Positions 31,568 through 63,681 of a DNA stretch of 64,000 bases are shown here, piece by piece. The first letter of the stretch is position 1, and the number at the start of each line of letters is the position of its first letter. The notes beneath the pieces were generated by a model that was given only the letters and a program-made list of their open reading frames with translations, ran no database searches and had not been told where the DNA came from. The stretch spans positions 7,453 through 71,452 of the forward strand of contig CALRCM010000001.1 of the NCBI GenBank assembly GCA_943354555.1, written 5' to 3'. The position numbers and the translations under genes were made by a program. Source of the stretch: Candidatus Peribacteria bacterium. Its GTDB lineage: Bacteria; Patescibacteriota; Gracilibacteria; Peribacterales; Peribacteraceae.

Positions 31568-31627
31568 GTGGCTATAGTGGAACCGTGGCGTTCTCCGCGC
31601 AATACACGCCACACATGTATTTTGCTT

Positions 31628-39337: not shown

Positions 39338-39376
39338 TTCCTCCATCCCTTCTCTCTGGTCTCCTCCATCCCCCGG

Positions 39377-39477
39377 CCCCTTCCTCCACGGGAGGAAGGG
39401 GAGCTCCGTTCAAGGAGAAACCGAATTGTTTCTGCTTTAAAAGTGTTCCCCCTCCTCTGTGGAGGAGGGGGTTAGGG
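39377..39477. repeat. Two family-2 polypyrimidine/polypurine hairpins (CCCCTTCCTCC-ACG-GGAGGAAGGGG; CCCCCTCCTC-TGTG-GAGGAGGGGG followed by TTAGGGG)
   Basis: Perfect 11-bp stem at 39377-39387/39391-39401 and perfect 10-bp stem at 39448-39457/39462-39471. The motif TTCCCCCTCC...GGAGGGGGTTAGGGG recurs at 55212-55241. Confidence 0.85.
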
Positions 39478-39664
39478 GAGGAGGAATTTTGGAGAAGCTT
39501 TGGTAATACAGCCACCGCACCCGGGGACGGGTGCTGCTGGGGTGCAAATAAACAACTAACCAGCAGCACGTGTCCTCACGTGCGGTGCGGGTGTATTTCA
39601 ACATTCTCCAGCGTGGCCACCTGTCCTGAGCAATGTCGAAGGGTTCCTGGCCGCGCGTTACTTC

Positions 39665-40933
39665 TTACAATGTCACATATTTCCTTCCCGCCATCACAAT
39701 CACCGTTCCATCCAGAATCGATTTCAAATCATAGATCAATCCTCCATTCTTCGTCGCTCCGATCAATCCTTCTGTTCCTATGCTCAGATATTCCTTATGC
39801 GGGACCAAGAGGATAACGGCGTCGTATGGTCCTTGTTCCAAAGCTCCCGGCGTCCAACCATTGCGCTGTATGACTTCACCTGACATGTACGGATCATGAA
39901 CTGAGACGGTATGACCGTGCGCCTTCAGTGCCTGAATAACATCTCCGGATTTACTATTTCTCGTATCAGGCACATCTTCTTTGAAGGTGGTGCCGAGAAC
40001 GAGAATGGATTTACCCTTTCCCCCGAGTGCTGCATGTATCTGATCAGCGACGAACCGTGCGACCGCTTCGTTGACGGCGCGTCCTGCAGTGATCACGTGC
40101 GTATTCATTCCCAATGTCTTTGCCTTTTCCACTAGGTAGTACGGATCCACGCCGATGCAGTGTCCGCCGACGAGGCCCGGAGTAAACCGTAGAAAGTTCC
40201 ATTTTGTGCATGCAGCATCCAGCACGTCTTTGCTGGCGATCCCGAGCTTGCCGCAGAACATCGCAATCTCATTGATGTAGGCGATATTCAGATCGCGCTG
40301 CGCGTTTTCGATAGCCTTTGCCATCTCTGCGACCTTGATGTTCGGTGCCTTATGTATGCCCGCCTCGATGACGGACCCATAGAGAGCGGAGAGCGTCTCG
40401 AGTACTTCCGGCGTTTGTCCGGATACTACTTTTACAATCGTTTCTAGTCGGTGCTTTTTGTCCCCCGGGTTGATCCGCTCGGGGCTGTACCCAAGGAAAA
40501 AATCTGTACCGCAGACCATGCCCGACGCTTTTTCCAAAATCGGGCCGCAAATCTCTTCCGTGGTGCCGGGCCATACGGTGGACTCGAAAACGACGATGGT
40601 ACCTTTTTTCATATTCTCTCCGACGGTTTTTGATCCGGCACGGAGGATGCTGATATCCGGAGTGTTGGTCTCATCGACAGGTGTGGGCAATGCGACGATG
40701 ACGATGTCGGCACTTTGAATGTCCTTGGGGTTTGCGCTGAACGTCATCGAAATTTCCTGCAACTCTTTGCTACTGAGTTCTTTGGTTCTGTCATGCCCCG
40801 CATTGAGCTCGCTGACGCGCCCTTCGTCGATGTCGTAGCCGATCGTCGTGTATCCCTTCTTCGCAAATCCATGAGCCAGCGGGAGGCCGACGTAACCCAA
40901 TCCCACGATACAGACGGTCGGAAGCGATTGCAT
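39665..40933 (-). CDS. Nucleotide-sugar 6-dehydrogenase, TviB/WbpO-like (UDP-N-acetyl-hexosamine dehydrogenase type)
   Basis: VCIVGLGYVGLPLAHGFAKKGYTTIGYDIDEGRVSELNAGHDRTKE; catalytic GLVGGHCIGVDP. Confidence 0.8.
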   Translation of the reverse strand: MQSLPTVCIVGLGYVGLPLAHGFAKKGYTTIGYDIDEGRVSELNAGHDRTKELSSKELQEISMTFSANPKDIQSADIVIVALPTPVDETNTPDISILRAGSKTVGENMKKGTIVVFESTVWPGTTEEICGPILEKASGMVCGTDFFLGYSPERINPGDKKHRLETIVKVVSGQTPEVLETLSALYGSVIEAGIHKAPNIKVAEMAKAIENAQRDLNIAYINEIAMFCGKLGIASKDVLDAACTKWNFLRFTPGLVGGHCIGVDPYYLVEKAKTLGMNTHVITAGRAVNEAVARFVADQIHAALGGKGKSILVLGTTFKEDVPDTRNSKSGDVIQALKAHGHTVSVHDPYMSGEVIQRNGWTPGALEQGPYDAVILLVPHKEYLSIGTEGLIGATKNGGLIYDLKSILDGTVIVMAGRKYVTL

Positions 40934-41033: not shown

Positions 41034-41438
41034 ATGCGTCATCTCGTCTTTGGTCGTGCCAAGAGCCCCCGTATTCAGTTCTTACGTTACTTCTTTGTGG
41101 GCGGCAGCGCCGCGGTGATGGATCTGGTGTTCTTCATAGTAATGGTGACGGTCTTTCATGTGCATTACGCCGTCGCAGCTTTCGTGGGCTATATGCTGGG
41201 GCTTGCCTGGAATCATTTCCTAAGCGTCATTTGGGTATTTCAGGCAAGCAAACACGCACGTTCCAAAGAGATTGCCATTGTCGTAGGGATCGCGATCGGG
41301 GGACTACTGTGGACGTGGCTGCTCCTGTATCTGATGATCGATGTCATGGGCATCCACGAAGTGGCGGCTAAGATGATTTCGCAGGTGATTGTGCTCGCAT
41401 GGAACTTTGGGATGCGAAAGATGTATGTGTTTCATTAA
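41034..41438 (+). CDS. GtrA-family membrane protein
   Basis: QFLRYFFVGGSAAVMDLVFF...AWNHFLSVIWVF...LAWNFGMRKMYVF pattern; 4 TM. Start set at ATG 41034. Confidence 0.75.
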   Translation: MRHLVFGRAKSPRIQFLRYFFVGGSAAVMDLVFFIVMVTVFHVHYAVAAFVGYMLGLAWNHFLSVIWVFQASKHARSKEIAIVVGIAIGGLLWTWLLLYLMIDVMGIHEVAAKMISQVIVLAWNFGMRKMYVFH

Positions 41439-41588: not shown

Positions 41589-43319
41589 ATGAGCAAAATC
41601 GCCATTATCGCCGGAGCGGGGCCCGCAGGCCTTACGGCAGCATATGATCTCCTGAAGCGCACGGATGTTCATCCGATTGTTCTGGAGTCCACACAGGCCA
41701 TTGGGGGTATCGCGCAGACATTCAATTACAAAGGCAACCGCATCGACATCGGCGGGCACCGGTTCTTTTCCAAGAGCAAGCGCGTGATGGACTGGTGGTT
41801 CAATATTCTGCCGCATCAGGGCGCCCCTGCAGCAGATTCTATAGAGAAAGGCCATGAGATCGATTATGCGGCGGAGGTGATTGTGGAGTTCCTCTGTAAA
41901 GAGTGTGCTTCTGGTCATGAAGAATTACGGGTGACAAAACCGGCGCCGGATCCAGAAAAAGAAGACCAAGTGATGCTGCAGCGCCCGCGCCTTAGTCGTA
42001 TTTATTTCCGCAGAAATTTCTTTCCGTATCCCATCGGCATCACGCTGACGGTTGCGCGGAGACTCGGCATAGTAAATACCTGTCTCATCGGTTTTAGTTA
42101 CATCAAGGCCCATCTCTTCCCACTCAAAGACGAATCTTTTCTTGATGCCTTTTTCGTCAATCGCTTCGGCCGCAGGCTTTACGAAACTTTCTTCCGTGAT
42201 TACACCGAGAAAGTCTGGGGAGTTCCTTGTGCCCAAATCCGTGCGGACTGGGGTGCGCAGCGCATCAAGGGATTATCGCTGAAGCGGGCGGTTTTTCATG
42301 CGGTGAAGGATCTTCTTACTTCCGATTTTGCCAAGGCACAGGTGGAGCGTGAGACCAGTCTCATTACGCGGTTCTTCTACCCAAAGTTTGGGCCCGGCCA
42401 GATGTGGGAGACGGTGACTGATCAAGTCCGTTCATGCGGAGGGGAAGTGCGGATGGGAAGACGGGTTGTAGGTGTGCGGTGGGAATCAGTTCCGGGTTCC
42501 GGGTTCCCAGTTCAAGACGTGCAGAACAAGGAACAAGAAACAAGGAACTCACAAATCACGTCCGTCACTATCGAAAACTCCGATACCGGTGAAACCGAGG
42601 AACTGCCGTGCGATTATTTCTTCTCCACCATGCCCGTGCGGCATCTGATCGGGATGATGCACCCGAAGCCGGATGACCGTGTGTGTGAAGTGGCGGAGGG
42701 ATTAATTTACCGCGATTTTCTGACGGTAGGATTGCTCTTGAAAAAACTTCATGTCGAGGAGAAAGGCAAAAAAGCCGCCGCGGATGTTCCGGATAACTGG
42801 ATCTACATCCAAGATGGCGGCGTGCATGTCGGACGCATCCAGATTTTCAATAACTGGAGTCCGTACATGGTTGCCGATCGCAAGAATTCCATTTGGATTG
42901 GACTCGAATACTTTGTAAATGAAGGCGACAAGATTTGGGTGATGCCGGATAAGGAGCTTATTGCACTAGGTATCGCCGAGATGGAGAAGATCGGCTTTGC
43001 GCGGAAAGCAGACATCCTCGATGCCTGTGTTTTGCGTATGCCGAAGGCCTATCCTGCGTACTTCGGCAGCTACAACCAGCTGGACGTTGTACGGGATTTT
43101 ACGGTGCAGTTTTCCAATCTCTTTCTTATCGGACGCAACGGTATGCATCGCTACAACAATCAAGATCACAGCATGCTCACGGCGATGACGGCGGTGGATA
43201 ACATTGTTGCCGGCATCACCGATCACCGGAATATCTGGGATGTGAACGTCGAGCCCACGTACCACGAGGAGAAGGAGCAGTCGGAGGTCGATGTGGAGGC
43301 GAGAAAGAGGGCTGTGTAG
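41589..43319 (+). CDS. NAD(P)/FAD-dependent oxidoreductase (amine-oxidase/UDP-galactopyranose-mutase-like fold)
   Basis: [18 protein letters not shown]...[32 protein letters not shown] dinucleotide-binding N-terminus. Contains a low-complexity insert at 42489-42548. Confidence 0.7.
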
Positions 43320-43358: not shown

Positions 43359-46300
43359 TTACGGCATTTTCATACAGCTTAATCCTGCATCAGCATTGAA
43401 TTTCCAGTATCCGCCCTTCCAGTCGGTGAAGTCATCACTGGAAATGCAGGAAAGCGAACTTGTGCCAGCCTGACAAGAATCAATCCCTTGGATTTTTTGC
43501 CAGAGAGGATAGGCGAGAATGCCATTCGTCGTTTGTGTTGTATCGACATTTCTGATGTCATATGCGCCAAACATGCCTTTCGTCATGTTTCCCAAAGGCA
43601 TGAATGTCGCTCCGGGAATGGAAGGAGTGACACTGCTGATACCGATGAAGCTGATGAATGTTGTCCCGTCTTTTTTAACAGCTCCTCCATAGGCCTCTGC
43701 ATTGGTGTTATACGAAGCCAAAGTGTTCCAACCATTTCCTGTCCACTGGGAAACGTATCCTGCCCCGCTCGAAGGCCACACAGGATTGTATGTCTGAACC
43801 AATGTGTCATGATCGGCAAAGTATGTACGTGAGGGAACGGTTCCTGGATTTGGGAAAACCGCCTTCGATGTCCATAAGCCATACGTAAATTCCCAAGATG
43901 TGGATGCTTCCCAGACAGATTTTCCGCTGAATGCATAGATTTTCCCGTTTTTCTTCGTAAAGGATGCAACACTCACAGGGAGCCTTCCGAGAAAGTGCCA
44001 TGTTCCTTCCATGTTGGTGCCTTGCACTTGCTGCTTCCACGTATCACCACTGTGGGTTCCGAGATACAACGTCTGTGTTTCTTCATCCAAGTAGAGAGCC
44101 GTCTGCGTTGTAATATTTCTTGTATTTGTACTAAAGCCACTTGGATCAACGATATTCTCTTTTACTCCCGCCGATCTCCATGAAACGTTATTGAAGTACG
44201 ATACTTGTGCATCATCGGCGAGGAAGAGCATGTTCGCCGTCGGATAAAAGAATGAAATGGATTGATAGTGTTGCGTTGCAGTAGGAGAAGGTAGCGTCAT
44301 AGCCTTGAAACTGCCGATGCCGCAGAGAGATGAAACAACGGGTGAAGTGGTGCATACAGGCGTGCATCCGTCATTAACGAGCGTATTGCCGTCATCACAC
44401 TGCTCACTGGTTTGGACCAGACTGTCACCGCAGCGAGCAAGGTTGCATGCATTGCTGCATGCATCCGTATTCACCTGATTGCCGTCATCACACTGCTCTG
44501 AACCGGGTTGAATAAAAGTGTCGCCACATTTGGCATTCTTACATGCGTTGGTGCACGAATCCGTATTGCTTGCATTGTTGTCATCGCACTCTTCAGTTCC
44601 CTCCCTGATGCCATTTCTACACACAGGAAGTTTGCACATGCTGCTGCAGCCATCAGCATAGTCCTGATTTCCGTCGTCGCATTGCTCGCCATTTTGGACA
44701 ATGCCGTCTCCGCAGACTTTCGGAGCAAATGTACATGCTGCCGTGCAGAAAGCCGTTGCACCAGCGTCGTCGCACTGCTCCCCGGCATTGACCGTTCCAT
44801 TACCGCAGTTACGGACGCATGCACTCGGAGCACCGGAGCACGTATATCCTTCTGCGATAATGCATGATACGCAGCCATCATTTGCATTCGCATTACCATC
44901 ATCACAGCCTTCGCCAGGATTTAAGACGCCGTTGCCGCAGATACGGACACACGTACTCGGGGCACCCGAGCAGGTATGGGTACCTTCAATGTTGCAGGTC
45001 AAATTGCAACCGTCACCGGCAGTCCTGTTACGGTCATCACACGCCTCACCCGTATTGATCACGCCGTTGCCGCATGTCGGGAGACAGACACTGGGCGATG
45101 TACCCGAACACGTATAATCAGGTTCGATTGCACAAGACGCATTGCAGCCGTCACCGGCAGTCCGGTTCCCATCATCGCATACTTCCGTTCCTTGCATTAC
45201 GCCATCTCCACAGGCTGGCAACTTGCAGGCATTGGTACAGCTGTCGGTATTGATGGCATTGTTATCATCGCATTCCTCGCCGCGTTCGACGACACCGTTT
45301 CTGCAGACGGAAAGGACGAGCTTCTTACAGCTCGGCGAAATTCTGCTTGTTGTGTCTACAGGGGCAGAGAGTAGGAGTGAGCCGTCGTTTACCGTATAGG
45401 CCGGATCATTATTGCTTTGACGCGTTGCAAAGAGCGTATCTATTCCTCCGAAGTGCACAATGCTTCCAATGCCATTGGATGCAAAGAGTTCGTTATCTGC
45501 AGAGACAAAGGATGGAAGACTCCCTGGACGAAAATAGACTGCAGTCAGGAAACTATTCGGCGTTTCGGCATTCATGCGATAGACCATAAAATTCGTCACA
45601 AAGCGCGGAAGTCCGACAACGAAAGCCTGTCCACTCGCTTCCATTGCCTGAAAGGTAGTCTCCGGCATTGCAGCACCCACTGATTGCCAGCTGGTCCCAT
45701 TCCATGTGCTCACGCCGGTTGTGGGCGGGACGTCGATGATTGCATAGAGCGTATTGCCTCCCCATACAGCAGCTTTCAACTGCAGGAGACCCTGGGTGTT
45801 TGCAGCGATGGCAATATTTTGGCCGAGATGACTCCACGTATGATCGTTGTTGTAGCGATAGACGTTCCCATAATTCCGTACGGCGGCGTAGAGAACTCCA
45901 TTGTGTTCGAGAAGATTAACGATGTTCGGAGCATTCGGGTTTACCACATTGGTGGAAACAAACGGAGTGCCAAGTCCTTCCCACTGTCCATTTGCATTGC
46001 GCCTGTAGACCATGGAATCTGCGGCAGTAACTGATCCTCCATAAGGTGCAGCAATCACTGCATAGAGTGTCCCATGGAGACTCTTCAAGGTGATACCGGA
46101 TGATGGAATGCGCACTTCCGTTACCCATGAAACTCTATCTCCGTTTCGCATCAGTCTGCGGATCGTATTGTCTGTTGCCATATACGCAGCATTATTAAAG
46201 GAGGCAATCGAGGTCGATGTTCCCATTAATTTTTTGAAGGTTCCCAGTGCCACAGGATTCACACTATCGGTACATTTCTCAGAAAGTGATACCGGCAACG

Positions 46301-49300
46301 TGCAGCTCCCCGGGGCACACCAGTTGGGATCCACTTTGCATTCCGAGGTGCATGCATCTTCATTGAGGAGATTGCCGTCATCACACTCTTCGGTTCCTTG
46401 CATAAAGCCGTCCCCGCAGGCAGGCAGTCTGCAGGCGTTGGTACAGCCGTCTGTGTTGCTCTCATTGGTGTCATCGCATGTCTCGCCAAATTCAACGGTA
46501 CCGTTTCCACAGAAGGGAATAGCCAACTTCTTGCAAACAACCTGGGCGGACTTGAATTCCGTCTGGAATGTCAGAGAGGTCGAGAGCATCAGTGGTCCTT
46601 CATCCAGTGATCGTGGATTTGAAACGCCCCATAGGCCCGTATCTTGCCAAATTTTGGCCCTGAGATTGTACTGAAGGAGACTCGTGCCTTTGATAAAGGC
46701 AAAGGGTTTGTCTCCGATACTGAACAACTGAGGTGGCAACACCAAGGGGTTTGAAGTGGATAAAGCTGTGGTAGGAGTGGTTTCCACACGGGTGTCCACA
46801 AGAGGCACATCCGCACCGGGCTGATAACGATAGACGCCCAAAGGTTCGGTTGCGCTGTTACTTGCATCATGTTTCCCGAGAATGAGGAGTGCATTTCCCG
46901 CACCGACAACACCGGAGATGCGTCGCAGAGTGGAGGCTCCCGTGTCGGGAACCCAGTTCGATCCCTCAAGTCGATGCATGGTACTTATCGTCGCTGTTCC
47001 ATCACTAGCAGACCCGATCACATAGAGACGTTCATTGGTGCTTGCCAGAAGTACTGGATTGCTCAGGACAGATCCGATAGCAGCCCAACTACGACCTCCG
47101 TTGTATTGATACACTCGTCCATTGTGCACGGCATACAAGGAGCTCTGGAATTCAAGAATGCTATTGATCACGGGGGGTGCCGAAGTCTGCCATGGCGTTC
47201 CAAGATCCTCCCATGTGCCTCCTCCCGTGCGCCGGAGAATGTGTCCTGCAGATCCGGGCTCCGATACTTCTCCGGAGCGGCCCCTTCTTATGGCATAGAG
47301 TTTTCCTCCTGTTTTGATGAGAACTGCTCCGGGACTTGCAAACGTACTTGCCCCATCTATAGGTGATAATCGTGCTTCCAAAACCCATACTGGTGTTTGG
47401 TTCACTTTGGTATATCGATACACTGTAGGGATCAAAATCCCCGAACTTTGTGTTACGCCGACAATTCCATACGCTTCATCTCGATGCGAAGCGACGACAA
47501 CCCCTGTGAGGCGGGAATCTCGCGTAATAGCACCAAGTGATAAGTGAGATTGCGTGCTATTGCACGCCTGAGTAAGTGGCAATGCAGGGGGAAGGATACA
47601 AATGCTCGGTGAACCGGAGCAGGAATACCCTGTCTCGATACTGCAGGTAAGGCTGCATCCATCTCCTGCTGTGCGGTTATTGTCGTCGCAGGATTCTCCT
47701 GCCTGAATCGTGCCGTTGCCACAGATCAATGAGCATGTACTTCTTGGCGTGCCGGCACAGCTATAACCGGATTCTATGGTACACAGCGCCGAGCATCCGT
47801 CCCCTGCAGCGATATTCTGGTCATCACACTGCTCGCTTTCCTGCTTAACACCATTTCCGCAGTTTCTGGTGCATGTGCTGCGCTCTGTTCCCGTACAGCT
47901 GTAGCCCGCCTCCACCACGCACAGCGCCGAGCATCCGTCTCCGGATGCAATATTGTTATCATCACATTGTTCATTGGACTGCTTCACACCATTTCCACAT
48001 GGTGAGGGTATGACGCAGATACTTGGAGATCCTTCGCAGCGGTATCCTATTTCCACTTGGCATAGAGCATTGCACCCGTCGTTGGGAAAGCGGCTTCCAT
48101 CGTCACACCCTTCTCCAACAGTAACCTGACCATTGCCGCAGAGCAGCGAACAAACGCTCGGCGTACCCAAGCACTGGAATCCCGTATCGACCGTGCATGT
48201 GCTGCAGCCGTCTCCGGAAGTGGAGTTGCCATCATCACAGGATTCACCGGTGTTGATGACGCCATTGCCGCAGAAAAGCGCGCAAACACTCGGTATGCCA
48301 GTGCAGAAATATCCTGAATCTGTGGTACACAGCGCACTGCATCCATCTCCAGCATCACGATCACCGTCATCACATGCTTCGCCGAGCTGAATGGAGCCAT
48401 TGCCGCAATTCAGGGTGCAGACACTCAGTGGTTCCCCTGTACAACTGTAGCCGGTTTCCACCGTGCACAATGCTGAGCATCCGTCGCCCGTTACAGTACT
48501 CCCATCATCACATGCCTCGTCCCGTTCCTTGGTTCCATTGCCACATACGGAGGGCGTTATGCATTCCTGCAGTTGTGTATAGAGAACGGTTCCGGTCGGC
48601 GTCGCAAGAACAAAATCCGGACGGCCATCACCGGTCATGTCGGCTAGAGCAAGATCCAAAACCCCGTTCTCCTGCACCATATGCTTGATCCAAGCCCCGT
48701 TATTCTGCTCCAGCCAATAGGCCGAGCCCTGTGCCATCGCATATGCCCGTACCGCAAGGTCGGTATCGCCGTCGCCGTCGATATCCCCAAGCGCAAATAC
48801 AGGCTTGATCCATGCAACATCGGCAATGAATGACCACGTGCCGTTTGCCGGATTCCACCACATGGCCTTTGAGTAACCACCAGTGGACTGTTTATAAATG
48901 AGTGCAACAATATCCTTCACTCCATCACTGTTCACATCACCAACTTCCAATGCCGAGGCCACCTCGTCTATCTGGAGAGTGGTCACAATATTCGTGGCAT
49001 CATCAATGATAAAATGTCTGACGCCGATAACGTGCTTGCCGCTTGCAAGTGTTGAGCGACTCACGGATTGGTATTGCCAGAGTGCACGGAGACCAAATCC
49101 GTCATCGAAGGAAAGTATTCTGCGTAGGGAGTTCTCATTTCCCAGAATGGAAATGTATTCCAGAGGCTGGTAGGCCGTCGTCGGTGTCATGCCGCGGTAG
49201 ATGGATCCTAAAAACCCGTTGGGTTTCGTGAGGACAAACCGTTCGCCGGCACGCGAGGAACGACGCAACCACGAAAGATTCTGTGCACTTACTCCAGAGG

Positions 49301-51443
49301 TGCCCATGCTGATGATGTAGTGGTTATTCTCATGGTAGCCCGGCAGGGGATTGGAGAGATTGGGATAGATGGATCGTTGCATAAGAGCGACAAGCTGCGT
49401 ATGCGTTGCTCCGCTCGGGTCGAAGGCTTCGATGTACCCGCGATCATTTCTGTCTCCACTGGTAAACGCGCTTGACCACGCGAGCGAGAATCCACTGTCG
49501 GTCTTTTTGAAAATTTTCACAGTGGTTCCGTCGCGGACGGCTACGTCTATAGTTCCGCTTCCATCAAAGTCTCCAGTCACCACTTGCTCACCTTTTGCGG
49601 TATCGATAACGGATTGTGTAAATGTAAGAGAGGCGTTTGCGGGTGCCGCGCAGGATAGTTTTTGCGGTTTCGTGCAGTCTGCAGGGCACCAGCCAATGGT
49701 ATTGCTCGTATTCCCGTCATCGCAGGTTTCCCCCGGTTCCTTTCGGCTGTTGCCGCAGACAATCGGCGTACATGTACTGGGGCTTCCTGAGCAGGTGAAG
49801 CCAGATTCTATCGTGCAGGTGGCACTGCAACCGTTGCCTGCATTGACATTGCCGTCATCACATTCTTCTCCAGTTTCCGTAAGGCCGTTGCCACATACGA
49901 TCGGTGTACAGGTGCTCGGGGTTCCAAGGCATGTGAAGCCAGATTCTACAGCGCATAGCGAACTACATCCGTCTCCTGAATTCAGATTTTGGTCATCGCA
50001 TTGCTCGTTGCCTGCGATCACTCCATTACTACATAGGCGCGTGCAAATACTGCGCGTCTCACCCGCACAGCTGAATCCCAACTCATACCAACAGCTTGAG
50101 CTGCAGCCGTCACCCCCTGCAATATTTCCGTCGTCGCACTGTTCCTGTCCTTCTTTGACACCGTCTCCACAGGCAATCAGATGACAATTGTTGGTGCAGC
50201 CATCCAGATTATTGGTGTTGCCATCATCACAGGTTTCATTCGGTCCTATGGCGCTGTCACCACACACCGCGTTTTTACATATGTTCGTGCATGCATCGGT
50301 ATTGGTCTGATTTCCGTCGTCACATTCCTCTCCCGGATGTACGGTACCGTCCCCGCATGCTGGGAAAAAGGCCGGGAGTTCCGCAAAAGAGACTGTGCGG
50401 TCCGTAAAGATCCACACGCGATTGAGGAACGTGACTGCTTTCTTGGCATATTGCGGCAGTGTACTGCAAGTCGGAGTAGAGGTCTTGGCCCAGCGAATAC
50501 CGTTGTCCGAAGAAAGGACGACCTTATCGCAGCTGGGGTTCCGGTTAGGTACGGATGTGTTTCCAAGCGCGAGAATATAGTTGCCGTTGATCATCAGGTT
50601 GGCGGCATTCGCCACGCTTAGCTGGACATTGGTGGACAGCGGTGAGGGCAAAATGCTTTCCCTAGTCCACGGCGCTACTCCCGTTGGCGAACTCATGATG
50701 TTGCGGCCGTTAAGCGCGAGGACGCGGTTTCCGAGGACTACTACACTTCCTCCAAAGCCGGTTCCGGCTGCTTGCCACGATCCTGTAGCGTTGCTCAGCA
50801 CCTTTACACTGGTCAGTCCCAAAAATAATTTCCCATTGAACACATAGAGCGGTGTGTTGTAGGTGCGGATGCCCACGGGCAGCTGGGGGCCGGGCAACCA
50901 CGTTCTGCCGTCACTTGAGTGGTACGTTGCTCGCGAAGCCGCACAAAGGCGTCCAAACATATTGCAGCGCATTCCTCCAACGACCCACAACTCTCCATTC
51001 CATTCGATCGCGGAGGCCGCGTAGATCCTTTCAGGGAGATTACTTTCCAGGTCCCAGGTGTAGCCGTCCGTCGTCGAATAGGCTTGGCTTGTTCCCAATC
51101 TGGAATTCAAATCTCTTCCGCCGATGATCCACAGTTTTCCCAAAGCAGAGACGAACGCATTGTCACCGACGCGGTACCCCAAGCCTCCACCCGAACGCCA
51201 CGTTAATTCCCTCACGCCACTCGGTTTGTTTTCTGTAAGACACGCGTTAGAGCATCCATCTCCATTGAGTTGGTTTCCATCTTCACATTCTTCATACCGT
51301 GAAAGATTTCCGTCGCCACACACAAATCCATCATTGACTTGTCCGATAGTGGATCCCCATTGCGAAGAGAAAACCCCAACTGCAGCCAGTGTCCCAAGAG
51401 TGACAGAAAGAAACTGAACTCTGCGAGTATGTGTGTTCTTCAT
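43359..51443 (-). CDS. Giant (2694 aa) secreted repeat protein: Cys-rich DUF4215/TIGR02232-type repeats + Kelch-like beta-propeller blocks + FG-GAP/VCBS block
   Basis: Uninterrupted 8.1-kb ORF with a signal-like N-terminus. 25 (E/x)CDD cores within CG(N/D)G...GE.CDDGN...GDGCS..C units. GDFDGSGTIDVAV, GDVNSDGVKDIVA, GDIDGDGDTDLAV and ADMTGDGRPDFVL FG-GAP-type motifs. Confidence 0.9.
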   Translation of the reverse strand: MKNTHTRRVQFLSVTLGTLAAVGVFSSQWGSTIGQVNDGFVCGDGNLSRYEECEDGNQLNGDGCSNACLTENKPSGVRELTWRSGGGLGYRVGDNAFVSALGKLWIIGGRDLNSRLGTSQAYSTTDGYTWDLESNLPERIYAASAIEWNGELWVVGGMRCNMFGRLCAASRATYHSSDGRTWLPGPQLPVGIRTYNTPLYVFNGKLFLGLTSVKVLSNATGSWQAAGTGFGGSVVVLGNRVLALNGRNIMSSPTGVAPWTRESILPSPLSTNVQLSVANAANLMINGNYILALGNTSVPNRNPSCDKVVLSSDNGIRWAKTSTPTCSTLPQYAKKAVTFLNRVWIFTDRTVSFAELPAFFPACGDGTVHPGEECDDGNQTNTDACTNICKNAVCGDSAIGPNETCDDGNTNNLDGCTNNCHLIACGDGVKEGQEQCDDGNIAGGDGCSSSCWYELGFSCAGETRSICTRLCSNGVIAGNEQCDDQNLNSGDGCSSLCAVESGFTCLGTPSTCTPIVCGNGLTETGEECDDGNVNAGNGCSATCTIESGFTCSGSPSTCTPIVCGNSRKEPGETCDDGNTSNTIGWCPADCTKPQKLSCAAPANASLTFTQSVIDTAKGEQVVTGDFDGSGTIDVAVRDGTTVKIFKKTDSGFSLAWSSAFTSGDRNDRGYIEAFDPSGATHTQLVALMQRSIYPNLSNPLPGYHENNHYIISMGTSGVSAQNLSWLRRSSRAGERFVLTKPNGFLGSIYRGMTPTTAYQPLEYISILGNENSLRRILSFDDGFGLRALWQYQSVSRSTLASGKHVIGVRHFIIDDATNIVTTLQIDEVASALEVGDVNSDGVKDIVALIYKQSTGGYSKAMWWNPANGTWSFIADVAWIKPVFALGDIDGDGDTDLAVRAYAMAQGSAYWLEQNNGAWIKHMVQENGVLDLALADMTGDGRPDFVLATPTGTVLYTQLQECITPSVCGNGTKERDEACDDGSTVTGDGCSALCTVETGYSCTGEPLSVCTLNCGNGSIQLGEACDDGDRDAGDGCSALCTTDSGYFCTGIPSVCALFCGNGVINTGESCDDGNSTSGDGCSTCTVDTGFQCLGTPSVCSLLCGNGQVTVGEGCDDGSRFPNDGCNALCQVEIGYRCEGSPSICVIPSPCGNGVKQSNEQCDDNNIASGDGCSALCVVEAGYSCTGTERSTCTRNCGNGVKQESEQCDDQNIAAGDGCSALCTIESGYSCAGTPRSTCSLICGNGTIQAGESCDDNNRTAGDGCSLTCSIETGYSCSGSPSICILPPALPLTQACNSTQSHLSLGAITRDSRLTGVVVASHRDEAYGIVGVTQSSGILIPTVYRYTKVNQTPVWVLEARLSPIDGASTFASPGAVLIKTGGKLYAIRRGRSGEVSEPGSAGHILRRTGGGTWEDLGTPWQTSAPPVINSILEFQSSLYAVHNGRVYQYNGGRSWAAIGSVLSNPVLLASTNERLYVIGSASDGTATISTMHRLEGSNWVPDTGASTLRRISGVVGAGNALLILGKHDASNSATEPLGVYRYQPGADVPLVDTRVETTPTTALSTSNPLVLPPQLFSIGDKPFAFIKGTSLLQYNLRAKIWQDTGLWGVSNPRSLDEGPLMLSTSLTFQTEFKSAQVVCKKLAIPFCGNGTVEFGETCDDTNESNTDGCTNACRLPACGDGFMQGTEECDDGNLLNEDACTSECKVDPNWCAPGSCTLPVSLSEKCTDSVNPVALGTFKKLMGTSTSIASFNNAAYMATDNTIRRLMRNGDRVSWVTEVRIPSSGITLKSLHGTLYAVIAAPYGGSVTAADSMVYRRNANGQWEGLGTPFVSTNVVNPNAPNIVNLLEHNGVLYAAVRNYGNVYRYNNDHTWSHLGQNIAIAANTQGLLQLKAAVWGGNTLYAIIDVPPTTGVSTWNGTSWQSVGAAMPETTFQAMEASGQAFVVGLPRFVTNFMVYRMNAETPNSFLTAVYFRPGSLPSFVSADNELFASNGIGSIVHFGGIDTLFATRQSNNDPAYTVNDGSLLLSAPVDTTSRISPSCKKLVLSVCRNGVVERGEECDDNNAINTDSCTNACKLPACGDGVMQGTEVCDDGNRTAGDGCNASCAIEPDYTCSGTSPSVCLPTCGNGVINTGEACDDRNRTAGDGCNLTCNIEGTHTCSGAPSTCVRICGNGVLNPGEGCDDGNANANDGCVSCIIAEGYTCSGAPSACVRNCGNGTVNAGEQCDDAGATAFCTAACTFAPKVCGDGIVQNGEQCDDGNQDYADGCSSMCKLPVCRNGIREGTEECDDNNASNTDSCTNACKNAKCGDTFIQPGSEQCDDGNQVNTDACSNACNLARCGDSLVQTSEQCDDGNTLVNDGCTPVCTTSPVVSSLCGIGSFKAMTLPSPTATQHYQSISFFYPTANMLFLADDAQVSYFNNVSWRSAGVKENIVDPSGFSTNTRNITTQTALYLDEETQTLYLGTHSGDTWKQQVQGTNMEGTWHFLGRLPVSVASFTKKNGKIYAFSGKSVWEASTSWEFTYGLWTSKAVFPNPGTVPSRTYFADHDTLVQTYNPVWPSSGAGYVSQWTGNGWNTLASYNTNAEAYGGAVKKDGTTFISFIGISSVTPSIPGATFMPLGNMTKGMFGAYDIRNVDTTQTTNGILAYPLWQKIQGIDSCQAGTSSLSCISSDDFTDWKGGYWKFNADAGLSCMKMP
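44345..45330 (-). repeat. Cys-rich repeat array 4 of the giant gene (9 CDD cores); approximate bounds
   Basis: Protein segment CRNGVVERGEECDDNNAINTDSC ... SEQCDDGNTLVNDGCTPVC mapped back to nucleotides. Confidence 0.7.
46295..46525 (-). repeat. Cys-rich repeat array 3 (2 cores); approximate bounds
   Basis: CGNGTVEFGETCDDTNESNTDGCTNACRLPACGDGFMQGTEECDDGNLLNEDAC. Confidence 0.7.
47596..48571 (-). repeat. Cys-rich repeat array 2 (7 cores, ~48-aa period); approximate bounds
   Basis: CGNGTKERDEACDDGSTVTGDGCSALCTVETGYSCTG ... ESCDDNNRTAGDGCSLTCSIETGYSCSGSPSIC. Confidence 0.7.
49670..50365 (-). repeat. Cys-rich repeat array 1 (6 cores); approximate bounds
   Basis: CGDGTVHPGEECDDGNQTNTDAC ... CGNSRKEPGETCDDGNTSNT. 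Confidence 0.7.
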
Positions 51444-52579: not shown

Positions 52580-53674
52580 ATGCTTTCCCTCATCCTTCCT
52601 ACCTACAACGAAGCCGAGAACATCCCTGATCTTCTCCCGAAGATTCGCAGTGTCCTCAAAGGCATCCCCCATGAAGTCATCATCGTCGATGATGATTCTC
52701 CGGATGGTACGTGGAGGATCGCACAGCAGATTGCTCACGATCTTGGTGATGTGCATGTTATCCGTCGCATAGGTCGCCGTGGCCTTTCTTCGGCAGTCAT
52801 CGAGGGATTCCTCTCCGCAAAAGGTGATGTCCTCGCAGTGATGGATGCTGATGGACAGCACGATGTGGCATTACTCACTACATTGCATGCTGCGGTAGCG
52901 GAACATGGCGGCATTGCTATTGGTTCGCGCTATGTCTCTGGGGGGAGTGTGGGGGAGTGGGACGAGCGACGGTACATGCTCAGCCGCATCGCAACGCGGA
53001 TGGCGCTTGCTCTTTGTGCAGTGAAAGCAAAAGATCCTATGAGTGGTTTTTTTGCGGTAGATCGGACTTCTTTTGAAGAAGTTCTGCCGCGTCTGAATCC
53101 CAAAGGATTCAAGATTCTCCTCGATCTGCTTGTGCACATGCCGAAAACAACACCGGTGACAGAATCTCCATTCATCTTTGCTACGAGGCGTCATGGCGAG
53201 AGCAAACTTTCCCGCAGAGTGCAGTTGGAATTTCTGGAATACCTCTACGATGTGAGTTTTGGGAATTGGATTCCCCTCACATTTGTGAAGTATTGCATCG
53301 TCGGTGGGTTTGGCGTTGGCGTACATCTGACGTCGTATAAGCTTCTTTCCATATTCTTTGCGCATGGGCTTCCGCTCACAGAAACGGGGTTTTCGCTTGC
53401 TCTTCTAGGAGCGATTGAAACCGCTATCATCTTCAATTTTTGGCTGAATAATCTCTGGACCTTTGCCCATGCAAAACTGCAGGGGATGGGCATGGTGAAG
53501 GGGTTTCTCAAGTACAATCTTGCGTGCGGTTTTGGGGCTCTGGCAAATTATGCGGTCAGCACGTATCTGTATTCCTATGGGCTCGGAGAGATCACGAGCG
53601 TGATCGTGGGAGCATGTGCGGGCATCGTATGGAACTACACCATGAGTAGAGCATTCGCATGGAAAAATGCATAA
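52580..53674 (+). CDS. GT2 polyprenyl-phosphate sugar synthase (DPM1/Ppm1/GtrB-like) fused to a C-terminal GtrA-like membrane domain
   Basis: LSLILPTYNEAENI...VIIVDDDSPDGT...VMDADGQHD. C-terminal FVKYCIVGGFGVGVHL...IFNFWLNNLWTF...VWNYTMSRAFAW (GtrA pattern). Confidence 0.8.
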   Translation: MLSLILPTYNEAENIPDLLPKIRSVLKGIPHEVIIVDDDSPDGTWRIAQQIAHDLGDVHVIRRIGRRGLSSAVIEGFLSAKGDVLAVMDADGQHDVALLTTLHAAVAEHGGIAIGSRYVSGGSVGEWDERRYMLSRIATRMALALCAVKAKDPMSGFFAVDRTSFEEVLPRLNPKGFKILLDLLVHMPKTTPVTESPFIFATRRHGESKLSRRVQLEFLEYLYDVSFGNWIPLTFVKYCIVGGFGVGVHLTSYKLLSIFFAHGLPLTETGFSLALLGAIETAIIFNFWLNNLWTFAHAKLQGMGMVKGFLKYNLACGFGALANYAVSTYLYSYGLGEITSVIVGACAGIVWNYTMSRAFAWKNA

Positions 53675-53972
53675 GCTGAATAATCAATTATGGGCTGTGT
53701 TCTGGACGATGTGCATCGTCATTGCGGTGGTGATCGCCACCCGTCTTTGGGCAATGAGATTGCTCGCTGATGCGGTCACTCGTGAGCATGTGCAGGCGAC
53801 GCTGGAAACCGTTGCAAAGCGCGAGGGGTGGTTTGTATCCGATATCAGTATTCGACACGTGCAGACGGATAGTGTCATTGTTCAGTACCGGCAGCATGTA
53901 CGCGGCAGAGATCCGAAGAGTTGTTACCGCATACCCTTGCAAACTCTCGAGCTTCTCCCCTGCACAAACTGA
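53667..53972 (+). CDS. Small membrane-anchored hypothetical protein
   Basis: 101 aa, one TM (LWAVFWTMCIVIAVVIATRLW). 8-nt overlap with the upstream gene and a TGATG junction with the downstream gene. Confidence 0.5.
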   Translation: MHKLNNQLWAVFWTMCIVIAVVIATRLWAMRLLADAVTREHVQATLETVAKREGWFVSDISIRHVQTDSVIVQYRQHVRGRDPKSCYRIPLQTLELLPCTN

Positions 53973-55144
53973 TGCTCCTACGTGTCCTCATTTTCGGCCT
54001 TCTTGAAGGATTTGCCGTTCTGCTTGCAGAGCTTCATAGATATCTCGGTGTGCATACCGATGAGGCGAAGTATCTGATAAATATTCCCTATCCCCATCCG
54101 CCGCTTGTGCGATGGATTTTGGAGACCACCGACGGATGGCAGCATCAGGAGATGTTCTGGCGCATCGTCTTTGCTTCACTTCTTACACAGGGGACGTGGC
54201 TGGTGTGGGATATGGCGAGGAAACTTCATAAGGATCAGCGTGTGACGCTCTGCGGTCTATGGATTTTCTCCGGAGCAATGCTTTTACAAGCCGGCACGCT
54301 CTTCATGCCAACGATTACGGCAGTGCAGACACTCTTTCTCTGTTGGATGCTGACGCGCAAAGAATTACTGAAGCAATGGAGTGCGCTCATTGCGCTTCTC
54401 TGGCTGGAGATGCTCTTTACTGCGTATCAGGGAATTCTTTTTGCACCGCTGATCTATGTGGCTCTGCTGAGGTCGGGAATTACTCCTTGGAAACGCTGGA
54501 GCACATTCCTACTGCCAATCGCATTGCTGGTGCTCTATACACCCACCAATCCTCTGACGATCGTGGCAACAGGATCTGTGAGCGGCATGAGTGCAGGATT
54601 ACCCATTGAAGAATCTGTTACGCGTGTACTCAAGCTCTGGGTGATCGGCGGAAGCATCGCTCTCAGCATCCTCGGTTTGTATGGCATGGTGCGTAGTCGT
54701 GATTACGCACTTGTGCTTACGCTTATGCTCGTCACGGCGTATATCTTTGTGGGGTTTAGGAGTTACTACGCCATTCTCTTCACGCCCTTACTTATTGCAG
54801 GACTTCTGAGCGCGCCGAAGCTTTTAAAGTCCTCCGCATTTCTTCTTGCTCTCCAGATCGTCGCTGGCATTGCCATCTTTCTGTATGTGCCGTTTACGGA
54901 GATGTCGAGTGCGAGATCTATTGGGCGTGTTCTCTTGGAGGCGGGCGTTCATGGAGAAATTCTTATCGAAGGTAGCTTTGGCCACGAGTGGCAGTACCTG
55001 ATGCCGGGACCGGTGCGGCGCTACCGGCCGGAATTTATAAAAGATGCTTCGGCGATTGTGTGTTTGGATCGGTGCAGCGGGATTGATGTAAACGTATGGC
55101 AACAGCTACGGAATGTTTCGGAGGAGGTGTGGGTGAAAAAATGA
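53972..55144 (+). CDS. GT-C-like membrane glycosyltransferase (PMT/ArnT-like)
   Basis: Polytopic; first-loop motif HTDEAKYLINIPYPHPPLVRWILE typical of GT39/83-like enzymes. Start set at ATG 53972. Confidence 0.55.
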   Translation: MLLRVLIFGLLEGFAVLLAELHRYLGVHTDEAKYLINIPYPHPPLVRWILETTDGWQHQEMFWRIVFASLLTQGTWLVWDMARKLHKDQRVTLCGLWIFSGAMLLQAGTLFMPTITAVQTLFLCWMLTRKELLKQWSALIALLWLEMLFTAYQGILFAPLIYVALLRSGITPWKRWSTFLLPIALLVLYTPTNPLTIVATGSVSGMSAGLPIEESVTRVLKLWVIGGSIALSILGLYGMVRSRDYALVLTLMLVTAYIFVGFRSYYAILFTPLLIAGLLSAPKLLKSSAFLLALQIVAGIAIFLYVPFTEMSSARSIGRVLLEAGVHGEILIEGSFGHEWQYLMPGPVRRYRPEFIKDASAIVCLDRCSGIDVNVWQQLRNVSEEVWVKK

Positions 55145-60984: not shown

Positions 60985-61045
60985 TCTGTGTTTTCCTTGT
61001 AAACAGAAATCCACTCTCTTTGCCGTAATAAGCCATAAAACGCCT

Positions 61046-61129
61046 CTACAGGCATGTACCGTTGCAGCGGTACAATGGTATTGACAATAGTGCGAACATC
61101 CCTAAAATGCTCGCAAGATGAATCTTCAT
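61046..61129 (-). CDS. Candidate 27-aa hydrophobic peptide MKIHLASILGMFALLSIPLYRCNGTCL
   Basis: ATG 61129 is preceded by a perfect AAGGAGG 5 nt upstream (minus strand CCGGAAGGAGGAATGGATG), in a genome where SD sequences are otherwise nearly absent. The coding 5' end and RBS are antisense to the transcript predicted from the 61081-61108 promoter. Confidence 0.3.
   Translation of the reverse strand: MKIHLASILGMFALLSIPLYRCNGTCL
61081..61108 (+). promoter_or_regulatory. Near-consensus sigma70-type promoter TTGACA-16 nt-TAAAAT
   Basis: -35 TTGACA at 61081-61086 and -10 TAAAAT at 61103-61108, read directly. Confidence 0.5.
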
Positions 61130-61775
61130 CCATTCCTCCTTCCGGTCCGTTTCATTCGCTGCAAGAAGCAGACGGAAGGGATTGCATAAAGAGTATTCCG
61201 GAGAAAGTAGCATCCCTTCCCCACTTGGAAGGTTCCTTAGGCAGTGTCTCGTTCCTTGAAAGCATCGCACGTAGAAAACGATCTGCCTTTCTCTACCGGA
61301 GCTTGGATTGCTTTGGGCACCTCCGCTCTGCGTTCGCAGACGGATGCCGCCTCTGTGCGGTGTTTGCCTCTAGTCTGAGGTAAGTAGTGTTGAAAGGTGG
61401 AAGCGTCAGTGTTTCTTTTTTGGGAGATGACCATCATGGTCAACTGGATTGTTGTCGGAGAATTGGAGCTGCCAGCTCCTCGTCTGACTGTTCGCCGCAT
61501 TCGAGCGCGGCGGGTGCATCGTCGCCGCAAGGCGACCGCATCAATGCTCAGCAGGCGGACTTCAGTGTTGCTTCGCAAGTTGCGACGCTCCAGAAGCAGC
61601 ACGGGAATCCGTGCTGAGCTGGAAGCCAATTCCCGGCGTGCGGTGCGCCTCGCGCACCGCCATCTCCACCCTGAGCCGGTCTAACCGGCTTGCTGACGTC
61701 AATGTTGGGTGTCCCCTTGGCACCTAAACGATCTGGCTCCACCAATTGGGTGGGGCCAGATTTTCTTTTTATTTT
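61115..61775 (+). ncRNA. Candidate structured non-coding RNA (unassigned family) between the promoter and the intrinsic terminator
   Basis: No convincing ORF. Perfect stem-loops at 61465-61479 (6 bp), 61521-61536 (6 bp, GCAA tetraloop), 61597-61616 (8 bp), 61640-61660 (9 bp) and 61674-61690 (7 bp), plus a 9-bp stem at about 61137-61178. Confidence 0.35.
61733..61775 (+). terminator. Rho-independent terminator
   Basis: CTGGCTCCACC-AATTG-GGTGGGGCCAG (11-bp stem with one G.U pair) followed by ATTTTCTTTTTATTTT. Confidence 0.75.
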
Positions 61776-61799
61776 AAAGGCAGATCGTTTTTTACTCTC

Positions 61800-62465
61800 A
61801 TGTACGTTCCAACTCTCACTTTCGATGCAGGCAAAGAATCTATAGGTTCAGTGATGCATGCAGAATCACTGAGATGGACTCCTGAAGCCGGATTAGTGCA
61901 GTCTCTCAAGGCGCTCCATCGGCGTGCTGCCGAAGGTCGGTCCATAGAGCGTGATCGGCAAAATGCTGTGCGTCAGTGGGAGCGTACACAGGTTAGCCAT
62001 CGTATCCGTAATCATATTGAAAAACTGGGTTGCCTTCCTACGCGAGCCACACTTCCTACGTATACGTATTAATGGCTACAGAATGCGATTGAGCATGGCG
62101 CAGCTTTTTCAAATGCAGTGGAGATGGAGGTGCTACTAGGTCGAGAAGGCGTTCTGGCATCAATCACTGATCCCGGTGATGGGTTTGATCCTGATGTACT
62201 CATGATGTCTGCACAGTCAAAAAATACAGCACTGTATGAAGCGGAAGGTTATTCTTCAGGGAGAGGATATGGTTTGCATGGTGCGCTCCAAAGCTCAGAT
62301 GTCCGTATCGGTTTTGAGCATCTGGAGCATGGCTTCCGCGTTAATTTATTGAGTAGCAGACAAGAGATGCTTGATCTTATGGTGAGGCAGGAGGCCATGG
62401 TTGCTGGTTACTCATGCGACTCATCATTGTCTCCGAAGTCCCGAAGCTCACCAAGTTGCGACTGA
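61800..62465 (+). pseudogene. SpoIIAB/RsbW-like GHKL (HATPase_c) anti-sigma-factor-type kinase gene interrupted by an in-frame TAA at 62070-62072
   Basis: ORFs 61746-62072 and 62118-62465 share one frame. Reading through the stop gives ...LPTYTY*WLQNAIEHG...ITDPGDGFDP...GRGYGL (N, G1 and G2 boxes). The stop sits exactly 4 codons before the N-box Asn, where GHKL proteins have the catalytic Glu (GAA to TAA is one substitution). Confidence 0.55.
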
Positions 62466-62743
62466 TATCGTTGAACCAATTCCGCGAGTCCAGGTACTTC
62501 ACCGAGATCTCGAAGAAGATCCAATGGTATGCGGATATCGAATTTGCGGACAGCCTCTGCGAGCAAGCCCGCTGGCTTATTCACTTCTGGAAACCCTCCA
62601 ATGAATGCCGAGGCTCTTTCGATAAAATCAGACAATAGTTCGCCAGCCCGCTCCACCTCACCGCTTTCAATATTCAGCCCATCAAGAACGTAGGGAACTT
62701 CGTCGTAGGCCGGATTCAGATTGATTTCTGACACAGGAGACAT
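62408..62743 (-). CDS. Hypothetical acidic protein (111 aa)
   Basis: ATG-initiated, coding-like composition (MSPVSEINLNPAYDEVPYVLDGLNIESGEVERAGELLSDFIERA...). 58-nt convergent overlap with the GHKL pseudogene tail. Confidence 0.4.
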   Translation of the reverse strand: MSPVSEINLNPAYDEVPYVLDGLNIESGEVERAGELLSDFIERASAFIGGFPEVNKPAGLLAEAVRKFDIRIPLDLLRDLGEVPGLAELVQRYQSQLGELRDFGDNDESHE

Positions 62744-62822
62744 AGTTAATCGAACTTGACTCTAGGCTGCAAGGTGAAACTGAGGATAATCGGTTCTAGA
62801 TGAGCTGCACGTTGGATGCTGC

Positions 62823-63659: not shown

Positions 63660-63681
63660 TTCTTGCGCTACGCTACGCAAC

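Follow-up and report, generated by a model that had tools for sequence, protein, structure and literature searches.

A 2694-residue cysteine-rich mosaic protein, predicted to be exported, in a glycan island of Candidatus Peribacteria

[quoted passage not shown] A 64,000-nucleotide stretch of a Candidatus Peribacteria bacterium (assembly GCA_943354555.1, contig CALRCM010000001.1, positions 7,453 to 71,452 of the forward strand; hereafter the window) carries a single giant gene of 8.1 kb in the midst of genes for glycan synthesis. What does a protein of this size do at such a locus? We find that the gene encodes a mosaic in which cysteine-rich repeats alternate with propeller-type modules, that it is real and under purifying selection, and that its two halves differ in history. 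The product is probably a modular protein that is exported by the Sec route, cross-linked by disulfides and located on the cell surface or outside the cell; it would use its propellers for attachment and would be a member of the large Cys-rich protein family of Peribacteria.

The gene is a single frame that opens with ATG. An initial annotation, made from the sequence of the window, had described it as a single 8.1-kb open reading frame (ORF) with a signal-like N-terminus, and the ORF list and a hydropathy analysis agree. Five non-repeat blocks, A to E, lie between the repeat arrays. The parts of the gene, in the order of the protein and with the evidence for each, are given below.

43359-51443, stop codon included, minus strand: the whole giant gene, encoding a mosaic protein of 2694 residues, predicted to be exported (ORF list and translation).
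51342-51443, minus strand: signal-peptide-like N-terminus, residues 1-34 (hydropathy, conservation).
51237-51341, minus strand: DUF4215 unit 1, short form with a CED core, residues 35-69 (TIGR02232 hidden Markov model (HMM), motif count).
50358-51236, minus strand: block A, putative divergent Kelch-type beta-propeller containing WNGELWVVGG, residues 70-362 (sub-threshold HMMs, transitive homology).
49659-50357, minus strand: DUF4215 units 2-7 (two short, three long, one variant), residues 363-595 (Pfam and TIGR02232 HMMs, motif count).
48549-49658, minus strand: block B, FG-GAP/VCBS (integrin-alpha-type) propeller, residues 596-965 (HMMs above cut-off, loop motifs).
47592-48548, minus strand: DUF4215 units 8-14, all of the long six-Cys form, residues 966-1284 (TIGR02232 HMM, motif count).
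46509-47591, minus strand: block C, Kelch-like propeller containing GKLYAIRRG, of a subtype restricted to Peribacteria, residues 1285-1645 (paralogy with block D, hhalign).
46311-46508, minus strand: DUF4215 units 15-16, residues 1646-1711 (motif count).
45303-46310, minus strand: block D, Kelch-like propeller containing GVLYAAVRNYGNVYRYN, residues 1712-2047 (AlphaFold2 model, Foldseek).
44331-45302, minus strand: DUF4215 units 17-25, short and long forms mixed, residues 2048-2371 (motif count).
43362-44330, minus strand: block E, orphan C-terminal domain containing GKIYAFSG, residues 2372-2694 (no homologue by any search).

The N-terminus consists of MKNTHTRRVQ, the hydrophobic stretch FLSVTLGTLAAVGVF and SSQWGS. 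Three basic residues precede the 19-residue segment of highest hydrophobicity in the protein (residues 9-27; Kyte-Doolittle 1.54), and a hydropathy scan of the 2694 residues showed no further transmembrane-like segment; the signal peptide was assessed by this heuristic only. The N-terminus contains no lipobox Cys. It is 100% conserved in an orthologue from an 'uncultured Candidatus Peribacteria' metagenome-assembled genome (MAG; contig CAYYFD010000044.1, called L005 below) and similar (48.5% identity) in the orthologue of Candidatus Peregrinibacteria bacterium Greene1014_49 (VMGQ01000005.1, our L004 and L006). Cysteine makes up 5.3% of the protein (142 residues), and almost all of it falls within regular four- or six-Cys units, from which we infer disulfides formed outside the cytoplasm. 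Export of the protein, as predicted from the N-terminus and the regularity of the cysteines, is well supported.

Motif counting identified 25 repeat cores (24 CDD and one CED), at residue 53, 374-574 (six), 978-1252 (seven), 1656 and 1687 (two) and 2058-2349 (nine), which is the 1+6+7+2+9 arrangement that the initial annotation had counted. Its assignment of the repeats to DUF4215/TIGR02232 was checked with both models, and each scored far above its cut-off. Pfam DUF4215 (PF13948) matched 24 stretches (E=6.1e-132, 430 bits against a cut-off of 27), and NCBIfam TIGR02232, the 'cysteine-rich acidic repeat', matched 25 (E=2e-232, 751 bits against 20.8). The regular Cys spacing and acidic C-D-D-G-N core that characterise DUF4215/TIGR02232 repeat proteins were found across the 25 units. 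These occur in two forms, a short one of 31-32 residues with four Cys and a long one of 44-47 residues with six, the mark of the long form being an extra E.GY.C.G.PS.C hairpin. The long pattern, originally attributed to every unit, holds for about 14 of the 25, and the rest are of the short four-Cys form. Nucleotide identity between units is 60-77%, and Tandem Repeats Finder reported no array in the gene; the amplification is therefore old, in agreement with the first reading of the sequence, and a collapse of repeats in assembly is unlikely. A direct repeat of 164 nucleotides (46372-46535 and 45166-45329, 74% identity) reaches from the end of each propeller into the first short repeats after it, and would be consistent with duplication of the block C/D propeller together with the short repeats that follow it.

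More than 1500 DUF4215/TIGR02232 proteins, from Myxococcota and many other groups, share this repeat, often together with other extracellular domains. The best non-orthologous matches of the giant protein share only the repeats with it, covering 7-27% of the query and mostly 12-13%; the propeller modules, like the order in which they come, are confined to a few Peribacteria. A single long six-Cys unit, from among units 8-14, aligns to residues 881-934 of PAPP-A2 (8sl1_A, E 1e-9) and to residues 852-923 of PAPP-A (E 5e-6), and a solved structure of one DUF4215 unit therefore exists. A name for the PAPP-A domain that holds the matching unit was not found in PMC9579167. The pappalysins (PDB 7ufg, 7y5n, 8a7d, 8sl1) belong to the metzincin proteases and have one such unit each, whereas the giant protein has 25 units and no protease domain.

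The alternation of repeat arrays with propeller modules, proposed in the initial annotation, is borne out by the map above, and the FG-GAP/VCBS block that it had placed at about 48590-49640 corresponds to block B. Both FG-GAP (E=1.8e-11, 44.1 bits against a cut-off of 22.1) and FG-GAP_3, which we take to be the former VCBS model (E=3.5e-14, 53.6 bits against 26.9), matched above cut-off, and four D-x-D/N-x-DG-like loops of the Ca-binding type could be read from the sequence (GDFDGSG, GDVNSDG, GDIDGDGDTD and DMTGDGRPD). Block B shares these HMMs and D-x-D-x-DG-type loops with integrin alpha chains. Unlike in integrins, recognisable repeats cover only part of the 370-residue block, and there is neither a beta-subunit partner nor a transmembrane tail.

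Assignment of the Kelch-like modules was less direct. Four such blocks had been proposed, and transitive, profile and fold evidence upholds A, C and D, whereas E finds no such support. Direct membership in a Kelch HMM family was rejected for all of them, as no block reached the gathering score of a Kelch Pfam model. The best matches of block A were to Kelch_1 (16.6 bits against a cut-off of 20.1) and Kelch_KLHDC2 (15.7 against 50), with a DUF6242 match that was also sub-threshold, and blocks C, D and E gave no Kelch match at E<=10. An exhaustive phmmer search with block A returned 1176 relatives. Kelch Pfam domains are present in 35 of the 40 best relatives that were scanned (best E 1e-65), and 24 of these 40 also match NanM, a sialic-acid-binding Kelch propeller. 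Because so many of the scanned top relatives carry Kelch domains, block A reads as a divergent Kelch propeller by transitive homology.

Paralogy links blocks C and D (blastp E 1.5e-12), and hhalign matched the A-family profile to the C/D-family profile with 92% probability (E 5.7e-7). The AlphaFold2 model of block D, built on an alignment of seven sequences, is all-beta, with a predicted TM-score of 0.61 and a mean predicted local distance difference test (pLDDT) of 54. A Foldseek search of the PDB with this low-confidence model gave six-bladed Kelch domains as the best matches (NS1-BP, 5yy8, E 6e-9), followed by KLHL12, KLHL20 and KEAP1, at TM-scores of only 0.46-0.55. We regard C and D, with moderate confidence, as Kelch-type propellers of a rare subtype. 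Their blade motif is G.LYA....G.VYRY....W..LG, and relatives are few: three Peribacteria DUF4215 proteins of about 1615 residues that also carry a Vgb_lyase-type propeller, and two LamG-propeller proteins in which blades of the form 'G.LYAGT..G.VYRYDG..W..G.LG' are obvious. Only two new proteins came out of a word-index search with the C/D profile, the others being found by re-scanning earlier matches and by contig scans, and the profile had no match among PDB sequences. In sum, the relatives of block A and the low-confidence model of block D resemble the Kelch propellers of KEAP1, KLHL12, KLHL20, NS1-BP and NanM; the failure of every block to pass a Kelch Pfam cut-off and the rare C/D blade motif set them apart.

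Block E stands alone. It comprises 323 residues with propeller-like motifs, and has no Pfam match, no relative among PDB sequences and no homologue in other proteins in a search of 5.8 billion proteins or in JGI metagenome contigs. Comparison by hhalign with the A or C/D profiles was not significant. A single-sequence AlphaFold2 model was unusable (pLDDT 34) and consisted almost wholly of strand and coil. The Kelch assignment of this block is unsupported. A Cys-rich tail takes its place in Greene1014_49, and in L005 such a tail precedes the end of the contig and block E was not seen there either; the tail, of the type 'C..P.C....P.CC', is found in L005, Greene1014_49 and the P0071 family.

Repetitive genes are prone to mis-assembly, and this one comes from a metagenome, so that an assembly chimera or a collapse of repeats had to be weighed. 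We consider either scarcely credible. The divergence of the repeats described above speaks against it, and the identical 2694-residue product was recovered in three assemblies, two from the ENA (ERZ27280297, on a 79.8-kb contig, and ERZ27280223) and one an NCBI MAG (GCA_943354675.1). The Greene1014_49 orthologue is colinear at 66% identity over residues 1-2274, and that of L005, on an 8.7-kb contig, is colinear at 87.6% identity over residues 1-2306; the MAGs that bear orthologues are titled Candidatus Peribacteria or Peregrinibacteria. The ratio of nonsynonymous to synonymous divergence (dN/dS) lies between 0.03 and 0.2 for each segment and each orthologue pair, and the whole gene is therefore under purifying selection. 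Since the product is identical in three assemblies, has colinear orthologues and shows low dN/dS throughout, the giant gene is a real single gene and not an assembly artefact.

The deposited gene call of the Greene1014_49 orthologue (P0002, 2214 residues) starts 64 codons late. The in-frame upstream sequence MKNTHTLRVRLLLVLLGAASLVGML (MKNTHTLRV...) restores a signal-like N-terminus and DUF4215 unit 1, and the corrected product has 2278 residues.

L004 9809-10000, L006 about 4940 (VMGQ01000005.1): the mis-called start of the Greene1014_49 orthologue.

A comparison of the three orthologues along their length showed that the two halves of the gene have not evolved together. Over residues 1-1284 the window is 91-95% identical to L005 and 58-68% identical to Greene1014_49 in amino acid sequence, and from block C to block D the values are 82-91% and 77-86%, respectively; the flanking cytoplasmic enzymes of the window and Greene1014_49 are 80-88% identical, which points to a CPR bacterium of the Peribacteria type as the source. 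Synonymous divergence (dS, NG86) in residues 1-1284 is 0.16-0.33 between the window and L005 and saturated against Greene1014_49, whereas over residues 1285-2200 it is 0.7-1.5 for all three pairs. The flanking genes give a dS of 1.4 to above 3 between the window and Greene1014_49. We also counted the fraction of synonymous mismatches at identical residues and compared residues 1-1284 with 1285-2190 by Fisher test. The fraction rose from 0.147 to 0.404 against L005 (p=9e-36) and fell from 0.562 to 0.386 against Greene1014_49 (p=1e-11). The best breakpoint lies near residues 1290-1330, about nucleotides 47460-47590, at the start of block C. Selective constraint alone cannot account for synonymous shifts in opposite directions, and because the shifts are opposite for the two orthologues, the simplest reading of the sequences would be that recombination swapped a C-R-D cassette between lineages. 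This cassette and the C-terminal tip differ in ancestry from the 5' half of the gene. The last repeat array varies as well, with nine units in the window, at least six in L005 and five in Greene1014_49.

A conserved scaffold with an exchanged C-terminus invites comparison with polymorphic toxins. By analogy with Rhs and contact-dependent inhibition (CDI) systems, the protein could be an effector whose conserved part delivers a variable C-terminal payload, namely block E, and both the exchange of block E for the Cys-rich tail in L005, Greene1014_49 and P0071 and its orphan status would fit. Pfam and NCBIfam scans, however, found no toxin or pre-toxin domain, no small immunity-like gene follows the giant gene (the downstream neighbour is a convergent, conserved FAD oxidoreductase), and block E is 323 residues long, consists almost wholly of strand and coil in its very low-confidence model, and carries propeller-like motifs. 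A toxin thus seems quite improbable.

Another Peribacteria MAG (CAZQYX010000013.1, L007) carries at 640-12172 a tandem cluster of four DUF4215 proteins of 427, 921, 803 and 1639 residues, with 4-6.7% Cys and a signal-like N-terminus in each; several end in EF-hand/dockerin-like 'DINNDGRVD' C-termini. Modules of the Kelch-A type and of the C/D type are found there on separate genes, so the giant protein unites what neighbouring genes of this relative encode separately.

To which known proteins does the product belong? Candidatus Peribacter riflensis encodes about 20 large (1655 +/- 751 residues) Cys-rich proteins with signal peptides, some annotated as FG-GAP and some weakly similar to Myxococcus Cys-rich repeats and pappalysin-1; a role in attachment was proposed for them, and they were reported to contribute to variation among strains (Anantharaman et al., 2016, PMC4736985). 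By description the giant protein is like this set, sharing bacterial class, large size, a predicted signal peptide, high Cys content, FG-GAP annotation, the similarity to Myxococcus repeats and pappalysin, a proposed part in attachment, and strain-to-strain variation. It has the features that mark the large Cys-rich proteins of Peribacteria, again by description: origin, more than 1000 residues, several per cent Cys, a predicted signal peptide, and similarity to FG-GAP or the Myxococcus repeat. Its 2694 residues place it at the long end of the family, its Cys content of 5.3% compares with 7.2 +/- 2.4%, and it stands alone in a glycan island, whereas P. riflensis has a 14-gene cluster of Cys-rich proteins. 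The CPR predator Vampirococcus lugosii has giant surface proteins with adhesion-type domains, integrin-like ones included, that were proposed to serve host recognition and attachment. Compared by description, these are likewise very large and exported, but their domain sets differ and DUF4215 is not mentioned.

Large Cys-rich attachment-type proteins of Peribacteria are, then, already known, and the giant protein fits their description. The gene contributes a full-length, well-supported example of this family with a clear module map. It leaves existing beliefs about Peribacteria and CPR organisms unchanged, and its modules suit expression and binding tests. The rare Kelch-like subtype, the orphan C-terminal domain and the recombination signature are the parts worth following, and the last could help to locate the parts that determine specificity. 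New here are the mosaic history, with its breakpoint and replaced C-terminus, and a flanking module resembling Gtr/Pgf systems that is conserved in one orthologue.

How might such a protein work? The 25 DUF4215 units, with four or six Cys and an acidic E-x-C-D-D-G-N core, would form stiff, oxidation-dependent spacer arrays. These arrays would hold out five globular modules, the Kelch-type A, C and D, the FG-GAP/integrin-type B and the orphan E, and the propellers would be the heads that bind ligands when the bacterium attaches to a surface or another cell. We read the protein as adhesin-like because it combines a signal-like N-terminus, Cys units and binding-type domains, because Peribacteria offer a precedent, and because a DUF4215 protein is a component of diatom adhesive trails. 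The initial annotation had named an exported adhesin-like product, and that view gains support from the N-terminus conserved in three orthologues, the 142 cysteines, the binding-type domains and the P. riflensis precedent (PMC4736985).

Several points weigh against an attachment protein. The predicted export signal comes from a hydropathy heuristic alone, and we infer the localisation of the protein, its disulfides, its binding and its ligand from sequence. No LPXTG motif, lipobox, C-terminal transmembrane segment, SLH domain or recognisable C-terminal sorting signal was found in it. The modelled fold of block D is of low confidence (pLDDT 54), and block E is an uncharacterised orphan. Kelch and FG-GAP propellers, moreover, occur in enzymes too.

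The initial annotation had also thought of a surface layer (S-layer), that is, of a protein forming a paracrystalline outer coat. The product is large, presumably exported and encoded beside glycan genes, and such layers have been imaged on CPR cells. Pfam and NCBIfam scans of the protein, on the other hand, gave no SLH or other S-layer domain, the number of repeats and the C-terminus vary between close relatives, and 5.3% Cys and propellers arranged like beads on a string would be atypical of S-layer proteins. We consider this reading very improbable, slightly more so than that of a toxin.

An attachment protein of the Peribacteria family remains our preferred reading, and the genes around it bear on whether glycans have a part in its function. 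The glycosylation-gene setting described in the initial annotation (about 58 kb) was recovered as a sugar-nucleotide and glycosyltransferase island of about 56 kb around the giant gene. It encodes two NeuB proteins, two CMP-sugar cytidylyltransferases, a PseB-like dehydratase, two DegT aminotransferases, a PseG-like/GNAT fusion, two Capsule_synth proteins, three UDP-glucose/GDP-mannose dehydrogenases, enzymes of glycosyltransferase families 1 and 2 (GT1, GT2), an ABC exporter, a GDP-mannose dehydratase and a deacetylase. On one side the giant gene is flanked by an epimerase, a GT2-GtrA fusion, a 91-residue ORF and a 390-residue polytopic protein, and on the other by the FAD enzyme, a GtrA protein and a UDP-glucose dehydrogenase. 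Four of these neighbours are listed below.

52580-53674, plus strand: GT2 fused to a GtrA/DPMS transmembrane domain, of the polyprenol-phosphate-sugar synthase type (Pfam).
53972-55144, plus strand: polytopic membrane protein of 390 residues with eight to nine transmembrane-like segments and no family (hydropathy, HMM scans).
41034-41438, plus strand: GtrA-family membrane protein of 134 residues (precomputed Pfam PF04138 in L001 and L004).
41589-43319, plus strand: FAD/NAD-binding oxidoreductase of 576 residues (PRK07208 family), convergent with the giant gene and conserved in Greene1014_49.

The GT2-GtrA fusion has weak NCBIfam similarity to PgfS, AglJ, ArnC and PpgS, all under the cut-offs, and is kept beside the Greene1014_49 orthologue. 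The 390-residue polytopic protein is fast-evolving (58% identity to the Greene1014_49 copy) and is a candidate lipid-linked-sugar transferase. By analogy, the genes at 52580-55144 and 41034-41438 (all on the plus strand) together look like a lipid-linked-sugar decoration module of the Gtr/Pgf type. Such an arrangement recalls systems in which lipid-linked monosaccharides supply the sugars added to envelope polymers or adhesins, a likeness that we take as a lead only.

It is conceivable, on these grounds, that the giant protein is a self-glycan-tethered or glycosylated component of the envelope, with propellers that bind the nonulosonic-acid polymer of the island, or a chain glycosylated by the adjacent module, or both. 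We hold this to be unlikely, although clearly less so than a toxin or an S-layer. It would account for the place of the gene inside the island, and is in keeping with the genes listed on either side, their identical order in Greene1014_49, the NanM matches among the scanned relatives of block A, and the two NeuB homologues, two CMP-transferases and PseB/PseC/PseG-like enzymes. Against it, the sequon and Ser/Thr search that had been suggested showed no enrichment: the giant protein contains 29 N-x-S/T sequons where about 32 are expected, and no Ser/Thr/Pro-rich linkers. Nine D/E-x-N-x-S/T sites lie mostly in the repeat core and hence are not independent. No oligosaccharyltransferase was identified, and the sole hint of a GT-C enzyme is a sub-threshold PMT_2 match (E 0.008) about 38-40 kb away. 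Glycosylation of the giant protein, as judged from the gene neighbourhood only, is possible.

Synteny, another check proposed earlier, gave a divided answer. The gene order around the giant gene is the same in Greene1014_49, but in L005 similarity to the window begins only 28 nucleotides before the ATG, and the upstream gene (L005 1-1481, CAYYFD010000044.1) is a 435-residue ORF unrelated to the island, which also counts against a glycan-tethered or glycosylated product. This would mean that the gene has moved or that the short MAG contig is chimeric. Because of this unrelated 5' neighbour, the linkage of the giant gene to the island is not universal.

Recombination and neighbourhood could be drawn together in a more speculative proposal, to which we give the same low credence as to a glycosylated envelope component. 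The gene would be a cassette-swapping host-attachment locus in which a conserved C-R-D cassette with its two propellers circulates among Peribacteria lineages by recombination, while the 5' half (Kelch A and FG-GAP B) and the C-terminal tip (block E or the Cys-rich tail) stay lineage-specific and tune the host or surface specificity of an episymbiont; the Gtr/Pgf-like module would glycosylate the protein or build a docking glycan.

The giant gene had been described as the only non-enzymatic large gene of its surroundings. This proved incorrect, since the window also encodes an 874-residue beta-helix protein and polytopic proteins of 548, 608 and 390 residues that have no family. The 874-residue protein (36713-39337, plus strand) combines an N-terminal transmembrane segment with a right-handed beta-helix; CotH matches it below threshold and is on record for its Greene1014_49 orthologue. 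Its identity to that copy is only 56%, against 80-88% for neighbouring enzymes, and it is a second fast-evolving envelope protein of the island. The 548-residue protein (3671-5317, plus strand) is the source of the PMT_2 (GT-C) match and adjoins a GT2 and an LPG_synthase_TM protein; it is possibly an extracytoplasmic glycosyltransferase.

Two NeuB homologues and two CMP-sugar cytidylyltransferases, together with PseB/PseC/PseG-GNAT-like genes and GFO/IDH/MocA oxidoreductases, lie at 9538-12186 and 19157-32269 (minus strand), which suggests two nonulosonic-acid pathways in one island. The UDP-glucose/GDP-mannose dehydrogenase at 13604-15307 (minus strand, 567 residues) carries an N-terminal extension of about 130 residues that matches a CBS domain, an unusual fusion. 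A 160-residue ORF with a GTG start in the ENA annotation (39334-39816, plus strand) and the convergent UDP-glucose dehydrogenase gene (39665-40933) overlap at the 3' end of the latter; Greene1014_49 lacks a counterpart of the ORF, which is probably spurious. Promoter and terminator scans around the giant gene gave signals at or near chance level. At the end of the window, about 3 kb (61000-64000) are devoid of ORFs of at least 150 residues, an unusual gap in the compact genome of a CPR bacterium. A tRNA-Ser(GGA) gene lies within this stretch (63038-63127, minus strand), its 3' end abutted by a direct repeat of 102 nucleotides (62811-62912 and 62938-63039, 86% identity), and a 38-nucleotide AT-rich inverted repeat is found at 63571-63659; the stretch may be an integration scar or a boundary of the island.

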